NCBI GenBank assembly: GCA_004321905.1
Contig: SCQF01000014.1
Coordinates: forward strand, 567-64,566
DNA length: 64,000 bases
Source of the DNA: Verrucomicrobiota bacterium
GTDB lineage: Bacteria > Verrucomicrobiota > Kiritimatiellia > CAIQIC01
Direction of reading: 5' to 3'
In this document: piece after piece, positions 42,993 to 49,189 of the stretch
Numbering within the stretch: the stretch's first letter is position 1
How the letters are laid out: each line of letters opens with the position of its first letter
Program-made: the position numbers and the translations under genes
The notes under the pieces: model-generated
What the model saw: only the letters and a program-made list of their open reading frames with translations
Told to the model about the DNA's origin: nothing
Database searches by the model: none

Positions 42993-43718
42993 GTGAAAGA
43001 AAACTGGGATAAGAATATTTCACTGATCTCGCGTGGGACGCGTTATCAGGTGCAAGTGGCCACCGCGCTAATGGGCGTCATCCCCTTGCTGGTAGTGTAT
43101 TTTTTTGTGCTGACGGTCTCTTCTCCGCACAGCATCTATTCCGGGATCGGCCAGCTTATCATCGTCAGTCTGACGTTTTTGCTGGCGGTGAGCGGCTATG
43201 CGCTGTTGTGCAAGTACCCCACCAACATTCTGAAGCTGCGTCAATATCTGCGCCAAATCGCCGAGGGCGAACTGCCGGAGAAAGTCGCGCTGGATAACTC
43301 CGCGGATGATATCCGGGCCATTGAAGGCTATCTGAACCAAGTGCTCACCGCGCTACGCGACAAAGTGCAACGACTTGAGCAGCAATTACAATTGGCCTGC
43401 GAAATGAAGAGCGCTCTCGAAGTCAATCAACGGGAGTTGCTCGCGGCGGAGCGCCATCGCGTCATGATCCAAAGTCTGGGCGCGGCCTGCCATCACATCG
43501 GCCAGCCGGCCACGGTGCTGCGCACGCATCTACATTTTCTCAGGAACCAAACGGTCATGCCGCGTGAGCTCGACGAGATTGCGGAGTGTGAGCGGGCCGT
43601 CGAGGCCATCGCCGCCGTGCTCGAAAAGCTACGCCACGTCAGCGCCTACCGCACCACACCCTATCTTGCGGTACCTGCTGGCAGCACCGAGGACGTGATT
43701 TTGGACATCGGACGTTAA
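42993..43718 (+). CDS. membrane-anchored HAMP-like / DHp-like protein without a kinase ATPase domain
   Basis: 241 aa, GTG start after a GGGGG SD-like run. Two TM segments, a coiled linker, and an H-box-like ERHRVMIQSLGAACHHIGQPATVL. The ORF ends before any N/G1/G2 box. Confidence 0.4.
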   Translation: MKENWDKNISLISRGTRYQVQVATALMGVIPLLVVYFFVLTVSSPHSIYSGIGQLIIVSLTFLLAVSGYALLCKYPTNILKLRQYLRQIAEGELPEKVALDNSADDIRAIEGYLNQVLTALRDKVQRLEQQLQLACEMKSALEVNQRELLAAERHRVMIQSLGAACHHIGQPATVLRTHLHFLRNQTVMPRELDEIAECERAVEAIAAVLEKLRHVSAYRTTPYLAVPAGSTEDVILDIGR

Positions 43719-45694
43719 CGCTGGGGCCGCCAGCCGAGACCGACAAACGTCGCGCCAGGGCCACTGACGCCGAGACCGAGCGGCGCGTTTTCCAGGCGCA
43801 TTTTTTCGTCACGCAAGATTTGCTCGCGATTTACCAAATATTCCACGCCGTTCGTGCCGGTACGTACACCGAGGCGATAGTCACTACCAATCCGCACCGG
43901 CGCGCCACGCGCCACGACGATGTGGAAGTCGCCGTCGCGGACGTGTGCCAGCGTCCAACCACTGGTTTCGCCAATCAAGCCGAAGAAATCGAAATTCTTT
44001 TCATCGCGGACATTGAAGACCAGCCCGGCGCGCGCCGGTTGCGTCAGCGAGGCCGCGGTCGGCGTCAGCGTCACGGCAATTTCCTGCGCCGCAACGGAAG
44101 CGCCGGCGATCGCGCACCCATTGGAAGCGCTGAAACTGATCGCGCCGGTGGATTTTCTCTCGAGTTTTCCAAGGGTTGGAAAATCGGCGGAGAATTTTTC
44201 CAAGCCTTGGAAACCGGGCGGCTCCGGCGGTGGCACGGCACGTACGAATGGTCGCTCCTCGGCTGTGATGGGTGTGAGTTGCATGTGGTCGCGTGCGAAC
44301 TTGGCGGTGGCTTGGGCCGAAAAACGGATTTCGTCGCCGAACTCGGCGACGGCCAGCAGCCGGTGCGGTCCATCGGGCAATTGGGCCGTGTTGAAAATCA
44401 GGCCGGGGCGGTTGGCATCGTGCTCAAGGCAGCGTCCGTCGAGAAAAAAGCTGTAACGCAGCACGACGTTGGTGGGCGCGCCGGTCACCGTGAGCATGGC
44501 GGCGAGTTGGTTGCTCACGCTATGGACGCCCAGCCGCGCGGTGAGCGGCGGCGCGAACGGCGCAGCCAGCGGATCGCCCACCGGCAGCAGTTGGAACGGG
44601 CAAAACGTGCTCAAGGCGAAACACTCGATCGCGGAACAACCGCGGACTTGGTGGGCAAAAAACCGCGCGTTCGGAAATTTCGTCCAGATCGAATACGGCT
44701 CGCTGACGGTGCCGGAGGTGAGCGTCGCCCCGGCGCGCGGCCAAAGCGTCAACTTGGTTTGGTCGGCGGAGTGGAAGAGCGCGCCGAAGCTGGTGAGATG
44801 ATCCGCGTAAGCGCCGGGCGCGAACGAAAAGCGCGGCGGCGCGGGCCACGCGGTGCCGCACAGCAGGCCGAGCACGGGCGTGCCCGCCATAGCCCCCGGA
44901 GCGACGGCGGGCGGCGCGTTGGTGATGATGGCGGTCATGCCGAGTGCGGCGAGTTCGGCTTGCGCGGCGGGAAATTGCCAGGCGCGCATTTTCGAGCGGA
45001 TGTCGTCGCTGGTGATGAAATAAAACGCGGCGTTTTCCCACCTTCGCTCAAGCTTCGGCGGGCAAGTCCAAGACTTGGAAAAGGGTTGCGCCGCTTTTTC
45101 CAAGCCTTGGAAAACTTCATCGAGTTCGAGGCCGCGCGCGCCGGTGTGGGCGAGCAGCATCGCCGGCAGCGGTAAAAGTTGCTGCGGTGCGGCGGCGCGA
45201 AACCAGCCGAGCGAGCGGCTGCCGGCGGTGGGGCCGTTGGCTTGAAACGGGCCGGCAAAAAATACGGAACGGAAACTACCGGTGGTGATCAAACCGGACG
45301 GCGGGACTTGGTTGCGCGTGAAGGTCAGGCCCGTGAGCGACATCGGCGGCGAAGTGGTGACGCGCACCGGGAAATCGGCGGAATAGGCGACGGCGAGGAT
45401 TCGTCCGAGCAGGCCGCGTTCCCGCAAGGCTTGATCGAGCGGCTGCCAGATGTAGCGCGTGAAGTCGGCGGGCGAAATTTCCGCGGCGGGCGCGCGGGCG
45501 GAATCCGGCACGTCGAGCGCGACGATGTTCTCCGGCGGCACGCCGCGAAGCGCCGTATAGCGGTTGGCAAGTTCGAGCGAGCGCGGCGAGTTCTGGTTGA
45601 CGAGTAGGAGTAATTCGTGCGGTGCGAGCGCGAAAGAAGACGAACAACAGAGGGCGAATAGCAGATGGCAGGCAATAAAGAGCGCACGATGCAT
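43715..45694 (-). CDS. TIGR03790-like exosortase-locus protein with extra C-terminal domains, carrying two in-frame dyad doublets
   Basis: 659 aa. Signal-like start. LLLVNQNSPRSLELANRYTALRGVPPENIV and GTVSEPY...VGDPLAAPF, as I recall for the TIGR03790 family. The doublets are translated as FQGLEKAAQPFSKSW and FQGLEKFSADFPTLGK. Confidence 0.5.
   Translation of the reverse strand: MHRALFIACHLLFALCCSSSFALAPHELLLLVNQNSPRSLELANRYTALRGVPPENIVALDVPDSARAPAAEISPADFTRYIWQPLDQALRERGLLGRILAVAYSADFPVRVTTSPPMSLTGLTFTRNQVPPSGLITTGSFRSVFFAGPFQANGPTAGSRSLGWFRAAAPQQLLPLPAMLLAHTGARGLELDEVFQGLEKAAQPFSKSWTCPPKLERRWENAAFYFITSDDIRSKMRAWQFPAAQAELAALGMTAIITNAPPAVAPGAMAGTPVLGLLCGTAWPAPPRFSFAPGAYADHLTSFGALFHSADQTKLTLWPRAGATLTSGTVSEPYSIWTKFPNARFFAHQVRGCSAIECFALSTFCPFQLLPVGDPLAAPFAPPLTARLGVHSVSNQLAAMLTVTGAPTNVVLRYSFFLDGRCLEHDANRPGLIFNTAQLPDGPHRLLAVAEFGDEIRFSAQATAKFARDHMQLTPITAEERPFVRAVPPPEPPGFQGLEKFSADFPTLGKLERKSTGAISFSASNGCAIAGASVAAQEIAVTLTPTAASLTQPARAGLVFNVRDEKNFDFFGLIGETSGWTLAHVRDGDFHIVVARGAPVRIGSDYRLGVRTGTNGVEYLVNREQILRDEKMRLENAPLGLGVSGPGATFVGLGWRPQR
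44167..44212. repeat. dyad doublet inside a coding sequence
   Basis: TTCCAAGGGTTGGAA-N16-TTCCAAGCCTTGGAA. Confidence 0.9.
45066..45112. repeat. dyad doublet inside a coding sequence
   Basis: GTCCAAGACTTGGAA-N17-TTCCAAGCCTTGGAA. Confidence 0.85.
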
Positions 45695-45712: not shown

Positions 45713-47257
45713 CTAGTAAGCGCCCTCGGCCTTGAATACGGCCCGGAAGGTACGCACCAAAACGACGGCGTCCAGCCAAACCGACCAGTTGCGGACATAA
45801 TAAAGGTCCCAGCGTTCCAAGCCAGCGTTGCCGGCGTCGCTACGGCCGGAGACCTGCCATAGACCGGTGATGCCGGGGCGAACGCGGTGGCGAATTTCAC
45901 GGATACGTGGCGGCAGTTTTTCTTCGTGGTAGGGCGGCAACGGACGCGGGCCCACCAGCGCCATGTCGCCGGCCAATACGTTGAAGAGTTGTGGCAATTC
46001 ATCAAGCGACGTGCGGCGCAGCAGGCGACCAATCCACGTGATGCGCGGATCGTTCTTGAGCTTGCAGTGCGTTTCCCATTCGGCGCGCAGTTGGGCATCC
46101 TCAGCCAGCCGGTGGCGGAGCACGTCTTCGGCATTCCGCACCATGGAGCGCAATTTGAAGGCGCGGATGCGGCGGCCCTGATAGCCGATGCGCTCCTGGG
46201 CGTAGAACGGCGAGCCGCGATCTTCCGCCCAGACCAGAAAAGCGAGCACGGCCAGCAACGGCAGCCAAAGCGGCGCCAGCAACAGCACCAACAGCAATTC
46301 GAGCGTACGCTTGAGAATGCGATCGGTGGGCTTGAGCAGGTTGTTGGAAATTTCCAAGCCGATGACGCCGATGAATTCACGCGGGCGCACCCACAGGGAC
46401 GGCGCATCCAACAGGTCGGGGACGATGATGACGTTGCGATAGGCGGCCAACGGGCCTTCGATCAGGCGACCAATCTGCTCGCGCGGAAAGTCGGCCGCGG
46501 CCAGAATGGCGCAAGGTGCGCGGGGTGTGCTTTCCTGCATGGGGCCGAGGACGGGCAAGCCGGCGATACGTGTGCCACGTGGTGCGGCATCATTGAACAC
46601 GCCGACAGGCCGATAACCGAGACCGCTCTCTTGACGAAGCACGGTCGCCACATGTTCAAGTATGGTGCCCCAGCCGTAGAGCACCACCGGAATGCCCCAG
46701 CGATGACGACGAATCAAGGTGGCCTTGGCCACGCCACGCGCCACACCAACCAACGGCATCGTCAGCGCGCAGGTGCTCAGCATCGCAATACGGCTGGCGG
46801 CATCGGTGGTATGGGTGACGAACAATGCAAAGCTCATAAAAGCGGTGACGGCCAGCGCCAGCAACGTCATCCGCCGGATTTCTTCCACCGCGCTTACGCC
46901 CCAGCCGGGCGTCAGGCGTAGCGCAATGGCACCGAGCCACCAAGCAGGGAGGAGCAGCTCACCTATGTCGGCCATCAGGAAGGCACCGCGCAAGGCGTAG
47001 CGTATCAGGCCGCCCAGCAAGAGGGCCAGCAGGAGCGCCAGCGCTTCGGCGAACATGAGGGTTGCCGCGTTGATCGCCAGGCGCAGGTAATAAGAAAAAT
47101 CTGTCGTCGAGTGCTCCAGCTGAAAGGTGTCGAAGAAGGGGTCGTGCAACTGGGTGGCGGGCCAGCCGGGCGCGGAAACTTTGCCCGCAGGTGGCGGGCG
47201 GGCTTGGGCGCGAGCCAGCAAGGCTTGCTGGAGTGGATCTGGTTGCGCGCCACTCAT
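45713..47257 (-). CDS. polyprenyl-phosphate glycosyl-1-phosphate transferase (WbaP/EpsB-type priming sugar transferase)
   Basis: ORF trimmed to ATG 47257 (ATGA overlap with the EpsI stop). C-terminal bacterial sugar-transferase domain: PFYAQERIGYQGRRIRAFKLRSM, DELPQLFNVLAGDMALVGPRP. Confidence 0.8.
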   Translation of the reverse strand: MSGAQPDPLQQALLARAQARPPPAGKVSAPGWPATQLHDPFFDTFQLEHSTTDFSYYLRLAINAATLMFAEALALLLALLLGGLIRYALRGAFLMADIGELLLPAWWLGAIALRLTPGWGVSAVEEIRRMTLLALAVTAFMSFALFVTHTTDAASRIAMLSTCALTMPLVGVARGVAKATLIRRHRWGIPVVLYGWGTILEHVATVLRQESGLGYRPVGVFNDAAPRGTRIAGLPVLGPMQESTPRAPCAILAAADFPREQIGRLIEGPLAAYRNVIIVPDLLDAPSLWVRPREFIGVIGLEISNNLLKPTDRILKRTLELLLVLLLAPLWLPLLAVLAFLVWAEDRGSPFYAQERIGYQGRRIRAFKLRSMVRNAEDVLRHRLAEDAQLRAEWETHCKLKNDPRITWIGRLLRRTSLDELPQLFNVLAGDMALVGPRPLPPYHEEKLPPRIREIRHRVRPGITGLWQVSGRSDAGNAGLERWDLYYVRNWSVWLDAVVLVRTFRAVFKAEGAY

Positions 47258-48051
47258 GAACCTGTGCCCGCGGGTGGAGGCGCTTGCCCGTTGAGGCTCA
47301 ATTCCGGATAGAGCTGTTTGACGAATGATTTGATCTGTTCCTGAAATTGCGCCGCGGCATCGCGCCGGCCGGCAATGGCGATATAGGCCCACTTATGGGA
47401 GACGCTGTGGATAATACGATCCCAGCCCAGCCAAAACATACGTTCCCAGTGGAGCGGAGTTTCGCGGCCTTGCCCGGCGAACCAATAAGCGTAATAGCCG
47501 GGTAATTCCCGTTTGCCGGAATGTATATCCAAGGGACGGGAAGTTTCGAGCACCATCACCCCGAGCGGTTCGCGTCCGGTGAGCGGCACGTCCAGCACAT
47601 AACTCTTGTTGATGCTATTGCCCTGGCCCACCAGGCAACGTTCGGGACGGTGAATACTCTCGCGCTCCCGCCCGCTGAGCACCAGCGAGGCAAACACTTC
47701 CGCGCCCACCGCGTTCGTGTAGCGGCCTTTGAGAAATTGGGTGTCTTTGGGCAGGCCTTCGTACTCCGCCAAGCTCATCGTATGCAGTTCCGCGCCGCAG
47801 ACCGGGCATTTATCCGGCTCGGTCAGTTGATCCACGGTGAATTCCTTCAGACAGGCGGCGTTATGGCAAAACCGCAATTCGGTGCCCTGCCATGCTCCAA
47901 GTTGCGCGGGCAACACCATCCGAATACCTGCTTGATCGGCGATATTGACGTCCACGGTGAACGTCAGCGCCAAGGCCGCCAGCGCCAACAACACGATGAC
48001 CGTCAAAAAAGGTCGCACATTCACAAGGCTCGTTCCCTCGTTACTACTCAT
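47254..48051 (-). CDS. exosortase-associated EpsI-family protein with an inserted Cys4 zinc-ribbon-like segment
   Basis: 265 aa. N-terminal TM. HRPERCLVGQGNS matches the EpsI H-P-x-x-C-L-x-G-x-G signature. CHNAAC...CPVCG lies at residues 62-85. Confidence 0.6.
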   Translation of the reverse strand: MSSNEGTSLVNVRPFLTVIVLLALAALALTFTVDVNIADQAGIRMVLPAQLGAWQGTELRFCHNAACLKEFTVDQLTEPDKCPVCGAELHTMSLAEYEGLPKDTQFLKGRYTNAVGAEVFASLVLSGRERESIHRPERCLVGQGNSINKSYVLDVPLTGREPLGVMVLETSRPLDIHSGKRELPGYYAYWFAGQGRETPLHWERMFWLGWDRIIHSVSHKWAYIAIAGRRDAAAQFQEQIKSFVKQLYPELSLNGQAPPPAGTGS

Positions 48052-48172
48052 GCTTCAACGCAAAGTTCAAACGGACGACACCACACTTTTTCCTGGCGCC
48101 TTCTCCCGGCCTTCGCGTCTTTGTGTCAAATTCTGGTCCGTGCTCATCCGTAATGCGTAATTACGCCGCGCC

Positions 48173-49189
48173 TTACTCCACGGTTGGCTCCTGCGCCGTC
48201 AGCCAAGCCTTAAACCGTCGCCACAATTGGTGGTAATCGGCATTCATCAACATACCTGTGCCCACCATCAAACTGAACGCCACAATGAACATGATATAAC
48301 CCGACCAATCGTGGATTTTCATCGCCGCCTTTTCGCCGAACGCTGCTGCGGAAATGATGATGCTGAGAATGCGTGCGCTGTTGCTTGCCATGGCCAAGGG
48401 GATAAAGGTGAGAAATAGAAGCCATTTCTTGATTTGTGTTTTCTGCGTTGCATAAGCATAAACCGCTGTCAGCGCTGCCATCGCCAGTAGTGAACGTAGC
48501 CCGCTGCATGCGTCGGCCACGTCAAAACTGAAGCCGCCCAACGCGTCCGACATGATGCGTGAGCCGGCGCTATAGACGCCGATGCCCAGCGTGTTGGCCA
48601 GGTGCGTTGAGACGGACGTTACGAAAATACGCAGCGGGAACGAGAACGTGTCCAGGAACGTCAGCGGAATACAGAAAATCAAGTAGGCACACGGAAAGAT
48701 CAGTAATTTGCCCATCTGCCAGCCATAGAAATAGAGTGGCACGCCCCAGACCAATAAGATCAGCGCTAACAGCGAGAGACGCGTCTGCTGAATCTTGGCA
48801 CCCAGCCAGTGGATCGCCAGCGCGACCACGATTACCGCCAGCCCCCACTGACAAACCGCTCGCGGTGCCATTATTAGTTCGCGTCGCTTGACCCAGATTA
48901 CCCCTAAACTCACCAGCGGCATCAACCAGCCAAAAGACCAGTCGGCCCCACCATAGGAAATATTGTCATTCCAGCGCGACAGCATCCACACGAATGCCGA
49001 CCGACTATTGACGTTGTGTTCCACCGCATTGCCCAGCAGATGGAACAAGATATAGATCAAACCGATGATGACCGCCATGAAAGCCAGCTGGGTCACCACC
49101 GGACGCTCCAGCGTGGCCAAGCGCCACCGTTCACTGAAGATGCCGTGTGCCAGCGCGGGCTCCTGCTTGCTCATTGACTGCATGCCCAT
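48173..49189 (-). CDS. exosortase-family transmembrane protease
   Basis: 338 aa, polytopic. Contains ADACSGLRSL, the conserved Cys motif of exosortases. Visibly lower G+C than its neighbours. Confidence 0.7.
   Translation of the reverse strand: MGMQSMSKQEPALAHGIFSERWRLATLERPVVTQLAFMAVIIGLIYILFHLLGNAVEHNVNSRSAFVWMLSRWNDNISYGGADWSFGWLMPLVSLGVIWVKRRELIMAPRAVCQWGLAVIVVALAIHWLGAKIQQTRLSLLALILLVWGVPLYFYGWQMGKLLIFPCAYLIFCIPLTFLDTFSFPLRIFVTSVSTHLANTLGIGVYSAGSRIMSDALGGFSFDVADACSGLRSLLAMAALTAVYAYATQKTQIKKWLLFLTFIPLAMASNSARILSIIISAAAFGEKAAMKIHDWSGYIMFIVAFSLMVGTGMLMNADYHQLWRRFKAWLTAQEPTVE

Follow-up and report, generated by a model that had tools for sequence, protein, structure and literature searches.

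Highly iterated palindrome 1 (HIP1, GCGATCGC) of cyanobacteria is kept at the DNA level in coding and non-coding sequence alike, at a cost to codon choice; it is 8 bp long, unphased and not concentrated past stop codons. The uptake sequences of Pasteurellaceae (uptake signal sequence, USS) and Neisseriaceae (DNA uptake sequence, DUS) are often found as inverted pairs after genes where their copies are intergenic. Within genes, their copies came about via substitution, at poorly conserved residues and with a frame bias (Findlay & Redfield 2009, PMC2817400). Rickettsia palindromic elements (RPEs) are ~150-bp elements with a conserved peptide per family (PMC10969869). Here we analyze a gene of a Verrucomicrobiota bacterium, a single 659-aa open reading frame (ORF) of the TIGR03790 family at 43715..45694 (minus strand) in a 64,000-nucleotide stretch of contig SCQF01000014.1 (hereafter the window), which reads through two pairs, or doublets, of a palindromic word. 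An earlier note on this DNA had taken both doublets for in-frame insertions that parallel RPEs. We find instead that at doublet 1 the word was written onto existing codons by point substitutions, with no change in length. The case is one of a genomic word superimposed on codons, which is a known phenomenon, here drawn from an apparently undescribed family of phased palindromes.

Four copies of a palindromic word in one reading frame

The gene reads through four copies of TTCCAAGNCTTGGAA, each with 0-1 mismatches, which form the two doublets. In doublet 1, dyad a lies at 45098..45112 (TTCCAAGGCTTGGAA on the coding strand; residues 194-200, read as F195-Q-G-L-E199) and dyad b at 45066..45080 (TTCCAAGTCTTGGAC, one mismatch; residues 205-209, read as (F)S-K-S-W209), with a start-to-start spacing of 32 bp. 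In doublet 2, for which this spacing is 31 bp, dyad a (TTCCAAGGCTTGGAA, 44198..44212) is read as F495-Q-G-L-E in an interdomain linker, and dyad b (TTCCAACCCTTGGAA, 44167..44181) is read as (F)P-T-L-G-K510 and makes use of the rare codons CCA, CTT, and GGA. The reading frame is uninterrupted for 659 aa across both doublets, and the translations ...LELDEVFQGLEKAAQPFSKSWTCPP... at doublet 1 and ...PPGFQGLEKFSADFPTLGKLERK... at doublet 2 are exactly those that the earlier note had quoted. The 64-kb window as a whole holds 38 dyads (≤2 mismatches), compared to 0.09 expected from shuffles.

The same note had argued for one gene rather than a fusion of separate genes, with a single TIGR03790-type domain on both sides of doublet 1, and our results bear out both points. 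The NCBIfam model TIGR03790 scores 83.8 bits (cut-off 67), with its match split over two stretches of the protein. Upstream of doublet 1 is the block LLLVNQNS (residues 29-36), in one frame with GTVSEPY (328-334) and VGDPLAAPF (372-380), which lie downstream. A search for homologues found 168, chiefly in metagenome-assembled genomes (MAGs) of Kiritimatiellota and Lentisphaerota, several of which carry the name TIGR03790. A profile of 100 homologues without the FQxLE motif aligns unbroken to residues 1-468 and then again to residues 512-656, and the ORF is thus one gene and not a fusion. A fusion in which a doublet would be the relic of an intergenic terminator is also excluded by the C-terminal domain, which is contiguous in dyad-free orthologues of the sister genus and in more distant ones, and by the position of doublet 1 within a single domain.

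Doublet 1 was written onto existing codons

The segment that holds doublet 1, bounded by the anchors P.P[AS]..L and R..R.WQF, measures 55-58 aa in 96 of 97 homologues, and 56 aa in 78 of them. The window protein alone has 67 aa, because of a 30-nt indel that is described below. With shorter anchors, applied at the DNA level to 11 orthologous loci, the segment measures 53-55 aa. Match states of the motif-free profile pass straight through dyad a. Doublet 1 is thus neutral in length, which contradicts the in-frame insertion that had been proposed for it. Within the genus, the dyads of orthologues occupy constant offsets of 54 and 86 and differ from the word by 1-4 mismatches. Sister-genus sequences have 3-4 mismatches at the first of these positions and nothing under 6 at the second, and in orthologues of other families the best match anywhere in the segment has at least 6 mismatches. 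Dyad integrity at the locus broadly tracks the genome-wide number of sites (1278, 2504, 1407, and 720 in genomes of the genus; 42 and 39 in those of the sister genus). The origin of both doublets lies in the genus ancestor, possibly already in that of the family.

According to an AlphaFold2 model, dyad a encodes the core of an alpha-helix (residues 191-202), predicted with a local distance difference test score (pLDDT) of ~93, and retains the near-invariant Leu198. Dyad b falls in the loop past this helix, with a pLDDT of <50 at residues 207-212. Contrary to the insertion into a loop that the earlier note had envisaged, dyad a is part of a helix and no length was added. Repeat-free comparators were available from Victivallales, Lentisphaerae, and Planctomycetota, and from one Kiritimatiellae genome. 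The Victivallales comparator shows no excess of the word (12 sites versus 12 control sites). Its orthologue reads ILAALEKAA (ATT CTC GCG GCG CTG GAG AAA GCG GCC) at the positions where the window protein reads VFQGLEKAA (GTT TTC CAA GGC TTG GAA AAA GCG GCG), and it is modelled with an equivalent helix at residues 189-201. Given that the native helix and LEKAA are present in a repeat-free orthologue, the word must have been laid over native codons by around half a dozen substitutions. The frame used, FQGLE, is the only one to keep the hydrophobic i/i+3 pattern of the helix together with Leu198. At doublet 1, the insertion of an RPE or of a miniature inverted-repeat transposable element (MITE) is refuted by length neutrality and by these native helix residues, which genomes without the repeat also have, a finding that the earlier note had itself named as one that would refute its reading.

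The sole true length gain at doublet 1 is a separate, lineage-specific event. Comparison with the closest orthologue (P0002; 73% aa and 76% nt identity) and with all other orthologues identifies a 30-nt (10-codon) insertion, TCPPKLERRW, at 45038..45067 (minus strand), which is missing from every one of them. The insertion splits the TTGG|AAAA edge of dyad b on its 3' side and is bounded by TGG...TGG, and HMMER places an 11-residue insert state over 'fskswtcppkl'. Comparison at the DNA level shows dyad b to be orthologous to that of P0002, with the indel located after it. Here a genuine insertion does adjoin a dyad, as an RPE-like or MITE-like origin would have it, but its sequence occurs only once in the genome and bears no relation to the repeat, which rules it out as a repeat or mobile piece. 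The G001 orthologue (L029) has its own 10-codon insertion, GAVQRSLGAG, directly upstream of doublet 2. Indels in the TIGR03790 gene seem to gather at doublet edges.

Judged from codon comparisons among nine orthologues of the genus clade, the doublets have been held at the nucleotide level since their origin, silent positions and rare codons included. Where two orthologues have the same residue, they also share the codon in 85% of cases within the dyads versus 58% elsewhere, a level that none of 2000 random column sets attains. In their dyad codons, the five orthologues with the best-kept dyads agree with the window at 85-91% of nucleotides and three with decayed dyads at 72-80%, and over the remainder of the gene genus orthologues agree at 68-76%. 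Nucleotide identity varies more in spacer codons (50-92%), which lack the consistent excess of dyad codons. Among the codons kept are the rare CTT (8% of Leu), GGA (7% of Gly), and CCA (10% of Pro). By comparison to the sister genus, dyad columns are below average (43-53% versus 61-62%), so that without the word this stretch is poorly conserved.

Doublet 2 (residues 494-510) lies in a linker modelled at low-to-moderate confidence that is followed by a C-terminal beta-sandwich, in agreement with its earlier placement in a linker before a beta-rich domain. Its uncommon 31-bp spacing is kept in every examined genus orthologue that still bears both dyads. This linker is variable and remodelled, with 34 residues between the anchors EI.RA and FSTTN as opposed to 64 in the sister genus. 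A site of this kind would suit the insertion of an RPE-like or MITE-like element, but the proposal of the earlier note is unproven for doublet 2, and no length was added there: the sister-genus linker is longer by 30 aa. MAFFT aligns FQGL with W(C/F)QPL (WCQPL/WFQPL), where TTCCAGCCGTTGCCG agrees with the word at 8/14 positions, and BLASTP aligns GFQ with EFQ instead.

A phased palindrome family and what may hold its copies in place

The four dyads belong to a family of 1278 in a genome of 2.53 Mb (59% G+C), which is made up of 433 doublets, 7 triplets, and 391 singlets. Of the doublets, 391 have a spacing of 32 bp and 42 one of 31 bp, and the 32-bp phase carries on into triplets. The conserved unit is the 19-mer TTTTCCAAGGCTTGGAAAA, and the 13-nt spacer and both flanks are unconserved, with a single spacer recurring twice among 391 doublets. 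There is therefore no copied or insertable element, but paired sites in a constant phase of roughly three helical turns; together with the absence of added residues at doublet 1, this removes the parallel to RPEs. Doublets have overall twofold symmetry, and the centre bases of paired dyads covary as complements (G..C 195, C..G 57, G..G 66, C..C 55; odds ratio ~3). Pairing within the spacer is no better than in shuffled controls, which excludes a palindromic spacer. Most doublets are intergenic or at gene edges, and they are densest in convergent intergenic regions. The start of 188 of the 433 doublets (43%) falls 0-30 nt past a stop codon, with a mode of 0-3 nt. None of the six frames of the word contains a stop, and the FQGLE frame is the one used by 83 of 134 deep intragenic dyads.

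Other families of Kiritimatiellia have 96-226 sites (≤2 mismatches) versus 6-22 in controls, with nearly no exact GSC-centre sites, and in genome G048 the usual dyad centre is GGA/TCC. Going by these counts, the palindrome family predates the genus, with centre triplets that differ by lineage. The best match to PF01797 in the genome under study, a Y1 transposase gene of the type of IS200 and of the transposases associated with repetitive extragenic palindromic (REP) sequences (REP-associated tyrosine transposases, RAYTs; 83 bits), is located outside the window at C36:73437-73778. On either side of it stands another palindrome, AGCCTAGGGC-N3-GCCCTAGGCT, and the nearest dyad is 1.1 kb off. A link between a RAYT and the dyad family is excluded, given that the only strong RAYT-like gene is bordered by another palindrome; the AGCCTAGGGC/GCCCTAGGCT palindrome suggests a second family, of the classical REP type, in the same genome. 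A full-text literature search for the palindromic word returned no papers, and the phased-palindrome family appears to be undescribed in the literature.

We favour the explanation, at a probability of roughly 0.7, that the doublets represent, at this locus, a palindromic site that recurs genome-wide in helical phase, and that they were substituted into tolerant codons and are held for a sequence-specific factor. The constraint would stem from this factor, most likely a DNA-binding protein, and the candidate protein would dock as a dimer of dimers with a separation of three helical turns. Its sites would usually lie right after stop codons, at intervals of ~2.8 kb, and in a compact operon composed of epsH, epsI, a transferase gene, and the TIGR03790 gene they would be accommodated in tolerant coding segments.

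This operon lies on the minus strand and consists, in order, of the genes for the exosortase EpsH (48173-49189), EpsI/DUF3485 (47254-48051), and a priming sugar transferase (45713-47392), all three of them Pfam hits, with the TIGR03790 gene in last position. The same gene order is also found in relatives. An 18-nt gap separates the sugar transferase gene from the TIGR03790 gene, and the map of dyads has none between the upstream operon genes (45713..49189). At the other end, there is no 3' intergenic DNA after the TIGR03790 gene because its stop codon and that of a convergent 241-aa gene (42993-43718) overlap by 4 nt (43715-43718). The sites would have been placed in coding segments because the operon is without intergenic DNA. 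In the relatives L095, L096, L098, and L099, the TIGR03790 gene is followed instead by a same-strand gene of 715-925 aa, likewise with a 4-nt overlap.

Along the chromosome, gaps between clusters of dyads have a mean of 2.8 kb and a coefficient of variation of 0.68. The median distance from deep intragenic clusters to the nearest other cluster is 1838 bp, versus 1129 bp for random intragenic points (0/1000 randomisations). Minus both doublets, the locus would form a 10.3-kb gap, at the 99th percentile of a distribution with only 8 gaps of ≥10 kb among 776. Of 8 genus loci examined, 6 retain both doublets. In these six orthologous loci, the flanking operon genes contain zero dyads, and in L095 the only dyads outside the TIGR03790 gene lie ~2 kb or more downstream. 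All this fits sites that are roughly regular and selected for, and that are put into tolerant codons where intergenic DNA is lacking. A further and more tentative proposal, which we regard as doubtful on balance, is that the genus may need a docking site for a cooperatively binding putative protein every ~3 kb, usually just past a stop codon, and that selection would put the phased pair into tolerant codons of compact operons that lack intergenic DNA, even those of a structured helix, and keep it there through speciation. Were this the case, protein sequence would be dictated in part by a code that organises the chromosome or marks transcription units.

Several points weigh against the view that the doublets are copies of a site held for a sequence-specific factor. 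The docking-site mechanism is drawn solely from symmetry, phasing, and conservation, and the binding protein is putative. Genome-wide gene calls came from a crude in-house ORF scorer, which weakens the genome-wide statistics, those on spacing among them, and the argument from the gap at the locus is post hoc. The orthologues that were compared are related by descent, though the control columns share their tree, and the 30-nt indel comes from one MAG assembly. The disagreement between MAFFT and BLASTP makes residue homology at doublet 2 ambiguous. Because the linker there is remodelled and 30 aa shorter than in the sister genus, doublet 2 may have an indel-linked origin, by a replacement that went together with a deletion. 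Moreover, doublets lie past stop codons and G.U slightly outnumbers A.C on the sense strand (63:41), both of which would also fit a role at the RNA level, and each doublet in this gene can, by prediction, be folded as one hairpin of -21 to -25 kcal/mol.

An RNA-level role is a serious rival because doublets sit after stop codons, and yet we consider it unlikely. A REP-like hairpin at the 3' end would stabilise, terminate, or process transcripts, or stall ribosomes, and the intragenic copies would be internal processing or pause sites, or tolerated by-products. The preference for positions directly past the stop codon, the hairpin energies (-41 kcal/mol for the consensus), the complementary covariation of dyad centres, and the slight sense-strand excess of G.U are all in keeping with such a role. 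Against it, arm mismatches are mostly uncompensated (97-114/418) and the ratio of G.U to A.C between dyads (101:80) is not significant. It is the sequence that is conserved rather than pairing, with a 32-bp phase that reaches into triplets. A canonical intrinsic terminator is excluded, as a T-tract is absent (18 versus 18) and fold energy has no strand bias (74 versus 68). A stable terminator in an essential part of an ORF would also be costly, yet the doublets are conserved.

Improbable, to our minds, is molecular drive that has no function at this locus. The word would have spread by biased uptake and recombination, similar to USS and DUS, or by biased repair or conversion, and would then persist merely in codons that tolerate it. 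Gain by substitution at weakly conserved residues, combined with a frame bias (83/134), is the pattern described for uptake sequences (PMC2817400), and conservation of the dyad-coded residues is indeed below average in comparison with the sister genus. Uptake sequences, however, are not palindromic pairs at a strict three-turn phase. Pure drive predicts neither the over-dispersion of intragenic clusters nor gaps that are more regular than Poisson, and the retention of both doublets in 6/8 diverged loci of the genus likewise speaks for more than drive. Least of all, and with a very small probability, mobile palindromes of the RPE or MITE type could have inserted in frame and added peptide to a surface loop at doublet 1 and to the linker at doublet 2, for which a palindromic word free of stops in six frames would be suited, but RPEs are ~150 bp long with a peptide conserved in each family, whereas here an insertable unit is missing, doublet 1 adds no length, and the RAYT-like gene of the genome is flanked by the other palindrome.

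The host protein and comparison with known systems

The AlphaFold2 model of the 659-aa protein (pLDDT 85.4; predicted template modelling score, pTM, 0.88) begins with an N-terminal signal peptide. This is followed by the alpha/beta TIGR03790 domain, which is also placed by NCBIfam (residues ~25-380; 44555-45622), an Ig-like beta-sandwich (residues 385-475; 44270-44542), the linker (residues 476-510; 44165-44269), and a C-terminal jelly roll similar to CBM66, ConA, and galectin (residues 511-657; 43724-44164), all on the minus strand. Pfam finds zero domains in this protein. In a Foldseek search against PDB, only the C-terminal lectin-like domain was matched among the top hits, by CBM66 (4b1l, TMt 0.66) and galectin-type lectin folds, and the TIGR03790 fold therefore has no solved relative among these hits. 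The predicted jelly-roll domain suggests that the TIGR03790 protein of the exosortase locus may bind carbohydrate. At 659 aa, both the window protein and its closest relative are without a ~58-aa Ig-like repeat that is present in the 710-717-aa orthologues of the genus, and proteins of the sister genus have an additional segment of ~45 aa (PPVI...DPDGDP). A full-text literature search for TIGR03790 returned no papers.

In conclusion, we report here a clean case, at the level of a single gene, of a nucleic-acid signal that overrides the choice of codons and residues within a folded domain. The helix occurs both in a protein whose gene has the DNA word and in one whose gene lacks it, which separates genomic words that are written in from mobile elements that are inserted, such as RPEs. 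For annotation, peptides such as FQGLEK, SKPW, and FPxLGK in these genomes should be read with caution as driven by DNA. The locus offers a concrete place to test what reads the phased palindrome.

By analogy, the doublets would seem closer to uptake sequences or HIP1 than to RPEs. They share with RPEs that a repeated palindrome is translated in frame inside a functional gene. Unlike an RPE or an in-frame MITE, an element of about 100-150 bp that lengthens its host protein, only 15-19 bp are conserved per dyad here, and doublet 1 adds no residues and is partly helical. REP sequences, bacterial interspersed mosaic elements (BIMEs), and REP doublets forming hairpins (REPINs) are similar in that the palindromes lie mostly just 3' of genes, in inverted doublets able to form one long hairpin. 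Different from these families and their RAYTs, the copies described here have no shared spacers (one spacer twice in 391) and no cognate RAYT that they flank, keep a strict phase of three helical turns, and overwrite codons.

Similar to USS and DUS, a short word is repeated hundreds to thousands of times, its coding copies are made by substitution, with a frame bias and at poorly conserved residues, and particular peptides are enriched, which here are FQGLE, SKxW, and PxLGK. By contrast with USS and DUS, each site is a palindrome of 15-19 bp, sites are grouped in pairs or triplets at distances of exactly 32 or 31 bp, the spacers being random, 43% of the doublets start ≤30 nt past a stop codon, and spacing along the chromosome is more regular than random. 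As with HIP1, coding and non-coding sequence alike retain a palindromic word at the level of DNA, at the expense of codon choice, but the sites of the family described here are longer, phased, and concentrated after stop codons.

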